Virus record (IMG/VR): IMGVR_UViG_2939127364_000001
Source: a virus
Lineage: Duplodnaviria > Heunggongvirae > Uroviricota > Caudoviricetes
Length of the DNA stretch: 64,000 nucleotides
Direction: 5' to 3' (one strand)
Shown here piece after piece: positions 35,481 through 36,248 of the stretch. Both the position numbers and the translations under genes were made by a program. The notes beneath the pieces are model-generated. The model was not told where the DNA came from. It searched no databases and saw only the letters and a list, made by a program, of their open reading frames with translations. How positions within the stretch are numbered: position 1 is the first letter of the stretch; every line of letters starts with the position of its first letter.

Positions 35481-36248
35481 ATGGACGATTTATCGGTATA
35501 CGCGAGATCATTGGATAAGGCTAAATACTATGTTTACTGTCTCTATGATACAGAAGACAAGATGAAAAGACCGTTTTACATAGGAAAAGGCAAATCGACT
35601 CGTTGTCTCGATCACATCAAGTATCCCGATGACTCTCCCAAATCCATGCGGATCAAAGAACTTTTGGCTAATAAAAAATTAGGCATAGATATACTTCGTC
35701 ATGGTATGGATGAAACCACAGCCAAACTTGTTGAGGCGACATGCATCGACCTTATGGGGGTCGGAGAGCTTACGAATAAGGTACGAGGAAGTGGTTCCAT
35801 GATGGGCAGAATATCACTGGACGCCTACCATCACTTAGTGCTGCAAGAGGAAACTGAAATTGCTCCTGAGCACGCCGGTCTTGCCTTCCTGCTAAACAGC
35901 ACCTACAAGTCAGGAATGTCCGCTCTGGCATTATATGAAGCTACGCGTGGCGTATGGGCAAAGGTTCCAAGAGACGAGAATCTCAAATATGCCTACGCTA
36001 CATATGGTGGGCTGATAATGGAAGTTTATCAGATTGAATGCTGGGTCAAAGCCGGTTCTCAGCAGTACTTTACAAGGGATATAGCTCTTGGCCCCGACAC
36101 AAAACGTTATGAATTTGTTGGCAGAATAGCCGATGAGCATATTAGAAAACTGTATGTAGGCAAATTAATCAAGAAGCCACCAAGCTACGGTAGCCCTTTT
36201 GTGAAGGTTGGGGTGGTTAGGACTGAACATAGTGTTAGCGCGGCATAA
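35481..36248 (+). CDS. GIY-YIG domain protein (probable free-standing homing endonuclease)
   Basis: N-terminus YYVYCLYD...RPFYIGKGKSTRCLDH fits GIY / YIG / Arg-His spacing; sole plus-strand gene among minus-strand operons. Confidence 0.5.
   Translation: MDDLSVYARSLDKAKYYVYCLYDTEDKMKRPFYIGKGKSTRCLDHIKYPDDSPKSMRIKELLANKKLGIDILRHGMDETTAKLVEATCIDLMGVGELTNKVRGSGSMMGRISLDAYHHLVLQEETEIAPEHAGLAFLLNSTYKSGMSALALYEATRGVWAKVPRDENLKYAYATYGGLIMEVYQIECWVKAGSQQYFTRDIALGPDTKRYEFVGRIADEHIRKLYVGKLIKKPPSYGSPFVKVGVVRTEHSVSAA

Follow-up and report, generated by a model that had tools for sequence, protein, structure and literature searches.

The window described here is a stretch of 64,000 nucleotides of viral DNA (Caudoviricetes; record IMGVR_UViG_2939127364_000001) and corresponds to an SSU5-like phage-plasmid of Escherichia. 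A 3-kb region of the window is 96-97% identical to the phages CMS-2020a and PhiR41_1, 94% identical to Cyrano and 86.5% identical to SSU5. The same region matches 729 plasmids, which are mostly non-mobilizable, and only 123 of these cover the gene considered in this work. The gene is an ATG-to-stop open reading frame (ORF) that occupies exactly positions 35481-36248 of the plus strand in the ORF listing of the window, stop codon included, and encodes a protein of 255 aa. Together with ~110 bp of upstream and 54 bp of downstream sequence it forms an exchangeable cargo cassette of ~930 bp (35370-36302), delimited by junction alignments. Judged from its sequence, the encoded protein is most likely a divergent nuclease of the PD-T4-3/CMoRE family with an anti-phage role on the phage-plasmid.

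The protein is 100% identical to a cluster of 372 members that carries the NCBI name 'LEM-3-like GIY-YIG domain-containing protein', and it matches end to end the function-unassigned PHROG family phrog_5356 (1e-99). A word-indexed search recovers 288 homologues and an exhaustive search recovers 1,781 cluster representatives at E <=1e-3. In Pfam, PF22945 (LEM-3_GIY-YIG) matches residues 32-104 with 30.1 bits against a cut-off of 27. The initial annotation of this locus had described a GIY-YIG-like N-terminus and had named PF01541 as the profile to be searched; this profile gives no match at E <=10 and PF22945 is found in its place, so that the GIY-YIG call is correct by profile comparison, and marginal at the Pfam level. 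The C-terminal half, which the same annotation left without a recognised fold, has indeed no match in Pfam, and none of the NCBIfam profiles matches the protein.

The discovery of PD-T4-3, in ECOR68, came from a functional selection carried out in E. coli (Vassallo et al. 2022). The PD-T4-3/CMoRE enzymes of E. coli O157:H7 and avian pathogenic E. coli (APEC) O1, with the structures 9U75, 9U8D, 9U7U and 9U7Z, have been characterised by Liu et al. (Nat Commun 2026, PMC12923530). CMoRE is a single-gene type IV restriction endonuclease that blocks T2, T4 and T6 by direct defence. Its C-terminal domain senses 5-hydroxymethylcytosine (5hmC) or glucosyl-5hmC (5ghmC), and subsequently the N-terminal GIY-YIG domain cuts, in a CN11/N9G pattern. 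DNA containing 5hmC or 5ghmC is cleaved, whereas DNA containing cytosine or 5-methylcytosine is not. The tetramer is a dimer of dimers that needs the V92/L96 interface and the beta1-beta2 loop. The negatively charged alpha2-alpha3 loop, with 15 residues of which four consecutive ones are acidic, works as an autoinhibitory lid. Removal of the lid charge (mutant 4A) makes CMoRE toxic and less specific, and the enzyme then cuts ordinary DNA (PMC12923530). The family, its structure and its mechanism are already published, and the window protein is a divergent member.

The likeness to CMoRE includes the size of ~250 aa, the organization in one gene, the three-tyrosine GIY-YIG motif, the catalytic Arg and Glu, a flexible linker and a C-terminal domain homologous to the one that senses the modified base. 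The PADLOC model PDLC04031 (PD-T4-3) matches residues 11-231 of the protein over positions 11-238 of its 256 (E 1.3e-23, 81.9 bits). When the 255-aa sequence is searched against the whole PDB, only CMoRE chains are found (9u7u and 9u75, E 2e-15), and the alignment spans both domains (residues 12-230). Residues 109-255 alone also find only CMoRE in the PDB (E 2e-4), and a C-terminal profile built from 20 family members retrieves CMoRE at 1.4e-8, the next match having an E-value of 0.48. In the alignment to 9u7u/9u75, where the PDB chain numbering is offset by five, the tyrosine motif GIYxY...YIG of CMoRE (Y17, Y19 and Y31) corresponds to Y17, Y19 and Y33 of the window protein. R41 and E85 are the equivalents of the catalytic Arg and Glu, and H45 and N99 complete the GIY-YIG site. 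The segments Y17-V-Y19 and Y33-I-G35 are invariant in 56/56 family members and in 114 of the 117 wider relatives. The complete set of active-site residues (Y17, Y19, Y33, R41, H45, E85 and N99) is likewise conserved in all 56 members and, position by position, in 111-116 of the 117. This invariance argues for a predicted active enzyme under purifying selection.

Along the gene, the N-terminal GIY-YIG domain is encoded by positions 35481-35771 and contains Y33-I-G35, R41, H45 and E85, with N99 just beyond it. The counterpart of the CMoRE lid, the loop from H45 to R57, lies within this domain at 35616-35648, as placed by the alignment to 9u7u/9u75 and by loop statistics. The flexible interdomain linker (residues 98-108; 35772-35804) has a predicted local distance difference test score (pLDDT) below 50, the rest of the predicted model being confident; the CMoRE crystals are also without density for this linker (PMC12923530). 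The C-terminal domain, homologous to the modified-cytosine-sensing domain of CMoRE, comprises residues 109-245 (35805-36215). The cassette holds a single ORF of the family size, and the genes on its flanks belong to the backbone, being present whatever the cargo.

Several features weigh against the assignment. The characterised enzymes share only about 25-30% identity with the window protein. The hallmark acidic lid of CMoRE is absent: the corresponding loop, IKYPDDSPKSM, has D50 and D51 as its only acidic residues, two consecutive ones compared with four, and the spacing from H45 to R57 is 11 residues instead of 19, which makes the loop 8 residues shorter. In the tetramer interface V92 is kept as V84, whereas L96 is replaced by C88, an invariant Cys in the clade of the window protein, and the beta1-beta2 loop is 2 residues longer than that of CMoRE. 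The sole reported contact to 5hmC, the main-chain O of Y127, falls in a variable stretch (around E123), so that the specificity is not readable from the sequence. Upstream of the gene, a scan of 35150-36400 for consensus sigma-70 promoters found none, and the candidate visible by eye, TTAAAT-18-TAAAAT at 35417-35446, is weak. The control of self and non-self discrimination may consequently work differently in the window protein, given its lid.

The short lid is shared by many homologues. Its length is the same in 74 of the 117 relatives and an acidic run of at least three residues is found in only 6 of the 117; within the family alignment the loop is counted as 9 residues in 54 of the 56 members. 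A short and weakly acidic lid is thus the majority state among the relatives of the window protein, which is possibly a new observation. The authors of the CMoRE study report the acidic loop in 'most', not all, family members (PMC12923530), and for this reason the short lid lowers the confidence in an identical control and not in the family membership.

These differences give some room to an explanation that keeps both the family and the defensive role and changes the specificity or the control: the short-lid clade would read a modification other or broader than 5hmC/5ghmC, such as other hypermodified bases, and avoid self-cleavage without an acidic lid. In addition to the lid statistics, the low identity to CMoRE and the variability of the ligand-contact stretch, this explanation draws on PD-T4-3Capno of Capnocytophaga, a homologue 48% identical to PD-T4-3 that acts in E. 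coli as a modification-dependent nuclease (Rodriguez-Rodriguez et al., Cell Host Microbe 2025, PMC12366544). PD-T4-3Capno, like the window protein a divergent member of the PD-T4-3 family, cuts both T4 DNA with glucosyl-hydroxymethylcytosine and Mu DNA with carbamoylmethyl-adenine (PMC12366544), and the specificity therefore varies within the family. On the other hand, nothing points positively to another substrate, the acidic loop is not a property of all members according to the CMoRE authors, and the C-terminal domain is clearly homologous to that of CMoRE. A changed specificity is thus improbable as the main explanation, and the chance that the exact substrate is 5hmC or glucosyl-5hmC, as in CMoRE, is judged to be about even. 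The type IV enzymes with PUA-like readers (EVE/YTH/ASCH/SRA-like), such as VcaM4I and the N-terminal domain of McrB, are more distant: they score low (identity <=10%) and show no similarity at the sequence level, and their nuclease domains are HNH or PD-(D/E)xK and not GIY-YIG.

The position of the gene provides a second line of evidence. The homology of the window with Cyrano, SSU5 and CP054387 stops at 35369-35379 and restarts at 36303, and both edges are confirmed by a base-level junction alignment of 9 elements with 6 cargo types. On the left, the common sequence extends to ...TATATACAGAAACAGG at 35369, and the elements diverge completely from the next base. This point is the outer end of an AT-rich imperfect palindrome of 55 bp (CCTGCTTCCGTATATAT ... 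ATATATACAGAAACAGG; 35315-35369), which forms the left border of the slot. On the right, the conservation begins in all elements at the stop codon (36301-36303) of a 119-aa gene on the minus strand (36301-36660). Every lineage has near-invariant sequence over the 90-100 bp next to the slot on either side. The palindrome itself is near-invariant in all 9 aligned elements, and it is so across elements of SSU5, Cronobacter, Shigella and E. coli that are otherwise ~80% identical.

The palindrome consists of the inverted repeats I1/I2 and has a DNA hairpin z-score of -4.2. Its arms occur 2 times in the window against 0.07 expected, and the palindrome is unique there; a role as a repeated recombination or binding site was rejected in view of this single occurrence in 64 kb. 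A 15-nt sequence that resembles a half-site, TTGCGTATATAATTA, is found at 37339-37353, just upstream of parA, and the match may be due to chance. The palindrome could be an operator or a binding site for a small ParB-like protein, if the half-site match is not fortuitous.

The slot is occupied by different genes in related elements. SSU5, Cyrano and elements of Enterobacter and Citrobacter contain a DUF2971 protein that matches the PADLOC candidate PDC-S31. CP054387 contains a 567-aa KAP-family nucleoside triphosphatase that matches PDC-S49, and the Cronobacter element contains PD-T7-5 (5.5e-138), an experimentally found defence gene. Two further cargoes, of 225 aa in S. sonnei and of 352 aa in E. 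coli pHH107-1, have no assigned function. The cargoes are inserted in either orientation, and each type has its own hairpin beside the stop codon of the parB-like gene. The slot was never empty in a sample of 60 plasmids spread over the whole ranking, nor in 4 phages, and always had a cargo of ~830-1,950 bp. With identical borders for 6 cargo types and unrelated single-gene cargoes, several of them known or candidate defence genes, the slot behaves as a defence hotspot. The 225-aa cargo (L005:1372-2049, S. sonnei NZ_CP034066.1) belongs to phrog_1353 and the 352-aa cargo (L006:1289-2347, NZ_CP116406.1) to phrog_22329. Neither has a Pfam or PADLOC match, the latter protein showing a weak beta-trefoil-like match to 5xg5 at residues 305-340. 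By their position, both are candidate new defence genes.

A similar organization is known from the defence hotspots of P2 and P4 (PMC13586616), where a fixed slot between core genes also receives many unrelated alternative defence cargoes and the history of the cargo is likewise decoupled from that of the core. The present case differs in the element, an SSU5-like phage-plasmid, and in the location of the slot between the partition and replication-gene operons, bordered by a conserved palindrome. PD-T4-3 has already been listed in a DefenseFinder survey of clinical isolates, on phage-plasmids of the SSU5 group in E. coli and S. sonnei; this is presumably the gene of the window. The literature search found no published account of the SSU5-like slot as a hotspot, a weak negative since its coverage is incomplete. 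A compact, palindrome-bordered defence hotspot of SSU5-like phage-plasmids may thus be new.

Within E. coli, and in contrast to CMoRE, the gene is carried only by plasmids and phage-plasmids, and its function is a prediction from sequence. Among 5,426 complete E. coli genomes, 106 contain the cassette, without exception on plasmids, and 258 contain the backbone gene of the left flank, so that about 41% of the E. coli backbones carry the cassette. Three diverged backbones have, relative to the window, a helicase of 80% identity, a 249-aa gene of 83-87%, a parB-like gene of 90-91% and a parA of 94%, whereas their nuclease gene is about 99.2-99.5% identical and their cassette 98-99.5%. The gene is 99.3% identical and the flanks next to it ~90%; the near-invariant 90-100 bp at the borders would hide short conversion tracts. 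Conversely, backbones 95-97% identical to the window contain a different cargo. A near-identical cassette in diverged backbones, together with different cargo in similar ones, indicates that the history of the cargo is decoupled from that of the core.

The cassette is also seen on conjugative IncFIA/FIB/FIC plasmids (NZ_CP062888.1, 19092-20706, and similar ~141-kb IncF plasmids). The IncF copy corresponds to window positions 35103-36717, with truncated SSU5-type flanks, and lies between IS3- and IS2-family insertion sequence (IS) elements. This placement between IS elements indicates that the defence gene has escaped onto conjugative plasmids. Family members with 55-76% identity occur as single genes on bacterial chromosomes: in Salmonella the gene lies between a DUF5384 gene and guaA, in Providencia near mutS/rlmF and in Shewanella near metH, and one genome has it next to RelA/SpoT-domain genes and transposases. 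Such a distribution fits a stand-alone defence gene of the cell and not a homing endonuclease confined to phages. Distant homologues over both domains (28-30% identity, 85-88% coverage) occur in jumbo phages of 255-279 kb, namely the Serratia phages Moabite, 2050HW, BUCT660, Yubaba and others and the Pectobacterium phage vB_ParM-25. Existing annotations call these jumbo-phage proteins GIY-YIG or homing nucleases. For virulent jumbo phages, a CMoRE-like nuclease directed at modified DNA could be of use in competition between phages.

The initial annotation had proposed a free-standing homing endonuclease that invaded between conserved genes. Such an enzyme would cut the cognate slot of SSU5-like elements that lack the gene, and its gene would be inserted there through double-strand-break repair when the two elements share a cell or infect it together. 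The identity of 99.3% in the gene against 80-90% in the backbone, with a sharp fall at the borders, at first suggested this process. The nuclease and its presence/absence polymorphism, as given by the counts of cassettes and backbones above, were borne out; the homing was not. Unlike the Seg proteins of T4 and I-TevI, the window protein has no sequence-specific DNA-binding module at its C-terminus: Pfam detects no NUMOD, IENR (IENR1), helix-turn-helix or Zn-finger module, and the C-terminal domain is homologous to the modified-base reader of CMoRE. The elements without the gene hold at the same borders unrelated cargo, none recognisably a nuclease, and no empty target allele is seen; the slot is therefore prone to exchange whatever its cargo encodes. 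The closest relatives, as described, are solitary chromosomal genes outside phage contexts. In structural comparison I-TevI scores no higher than UvrC or EndoII, and the resemblance through the GIY-YIG domain is thus generic. Finally, crossovers within the near-invariant abutting blocks leave no trace and explain the sharp borders. Ordinary recombination in these blocks gives the same identity picture, and it gives identical borders for cargo that is not a nuclease. After the junction alignments, which revealed both the non-nuclease cargo at the same borders and the near-invariant blocks, homing was rejected as the main explanation and is regarded as very unlikely. The evidence favours the alternative that the initial annotation had mentioned only in second place, namely another kind of nuclease effector.

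Scarcely credible is a housekeeping nuclease, UvrC- or Slx1-like, that would serve repair, replication or recombination in the DNA metabolism of the phage-plasmid: the gene adjoins the helicase/primase and partition genes and UvrC is the best non-CMoRE structural match of its N-terminal domain, but it is missing from ~59% of the E. coli backbones, where unrelated genes take its place, so that it is dispensable for the element, it forms a separately bounded cassette on the opposite strand, and its full-length architecture fits CMoRE and not UvrC or Slx1.

As a PD-T4-3/CMoRE-family defence nuclease, the protein can be placed in the following model. The SSU5-like phage-plasmid would keep the gene as a 'moron' that shields the lysogen and the element itself from superinfecting phages with hypermodified DNA. 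In the resident plasmid state the nuclease would probably be expressed from its own cassette, which is self-contained: it runs against the replication and partition operons, on the opposite strand, and includes an upstream region and a hairpin terminator of its own. The C-terminal domain would bind the modified base in the incoming T-even-like DNA, that is, 5-hydroxymethyl- or glucosyl-hydroxymethyl-cytosine if the specificity is that of CMoRE. Then, the N-terminal GIY-YIG domain (Y17/Y19/Y33, R41, H45, E85 and N99) would cut and degrade the phage genome. The DNA of the host and of the phage-plasmid, presumably with ordinary cytosine, would be spared, by analogy with CMoRE. Recombination in the near-invariant blocks on either side of the slot is the probable route of cassette exchange. 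Direct results of the analysis are the homology of both domains to CMoRE, the invariant catalytic residues, the borders of the cassette, the other cargoes found in the slot and the near-identity of the cassette in diverged backbones; the nuclease activity, its dependence on a modification and the nature of that modification, the anti-phage function, the expression in the plasmid state and the route of exchange are deduced from them.

The probable intrinsic terminator of the cassette is a GC-rich hairpin on the plus strand (36261-36299), with core arms ATGCATTGGCGC / GCGCCAATGCAT followed by a T-run. Its RNA fold has a free energy of -25.1 kcal/mol (z -4.8), none of 200 shuffles being as stable, and it contains a perfect 12-nt inverted repeat (I10). 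A scan of 35150-36400 for consensus terminators made no call and missed this hairpin, in our reading because the stem extension, which tolerates G-T pairs, uses up part of the T-run. The cassette hairpin of L014, a diverged backbone, has the same stem and a reverse-complemented loop (aatgtac versus gtacatt; window 36277-36283, L014:3283-3483). Template switching at palindromes gives rise to loop inversions of this type.

The surroundings of the slot agree with the initial annotation, which had located the gene between a helicase operon and a partition locus: a DnaB-like helicase/primase lies on the left and ParA on the right. The first gene left of the slot is a 249-aa gene on the minus strand (34458-35207), conserved in all relatives and without Pfam or PADLOC match, which is situated upstream of the DnaB-like helicase (33074-34414). 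On the right, the 119-aa gene, an ORF with no Pfam match, abuts downstream a ParA-type partition ATPase on the minus strand (36660-37325; Pfam MipZ, AAA_31, CbiA and ParA), annotated as ParA in SSU5, Cyrano and PhiR41_1. From its position, the 119-aa gene is probably the small ParB or centromere-binding partner of ParA. In Cyrano it is annotated as 'RelE/ParE putative toxin', a label that Pfam does not match; its place directly behind a small ParA speaks rather for a centromere-binding partner of the ParB/ParG type.

The nuclease gene had also been described as the only plus-strand gene in 25 kb, which does not hold: a TacA-like antitoxin (37605-37913; PF08681, 8.6e-26) and a GNAT toxin (37921-38442) lie on the plus strand 1.36 kb downstream. 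This TacA/GNAT (TacT/KacT-like) toxin-antitoxin pair occupies a second variable slot beyond parA (37326-38600) in the window, Cyrano and the elements L014-L016. In PhiR41_1 and SSU5 the second slot contains two unrelated minus-strand genes, which have no PADLOC match.

The placement of the protein in the PD-T4-3/CMoRE family corrects the current annotation. RefSeq labels it 'LEM-3-like GIY-YIG domain-containing protein' or 'hypothetical protein'; taken at face value, the gene would suggest a homing endonuclease. The lid has been presented as a hallmark of CMoRE, yet most relatives of the window protein are without an acidic lid, and the self-protection there must work otherwise. A wider reading joins these aspects: a lid-less CMoRE clade that is safe without the acidic safety-catch, that perhaps recognises different or broader modifications, and that resides in a previously undescribed palindrome-bordered hotspot of SSU5-like elements. 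This combination is tentative and rather unlikely as a whole; if it is true, the 225-aa and 352-aa occupants of the slot would be new defence genes. The hotspot itself is compact and sharply bordered, and it belongs to a clinically common family of phage-plasmids. If the placement of the nuclease is true, a plasmid-borne protection against T4-like phages would be present in ~2% of the complete E. coli genomes, a share that rises to ~41% when only genomes with an SSU5-like phage-plasmid are counted; this would be relevant to phage therapy and phage typing.
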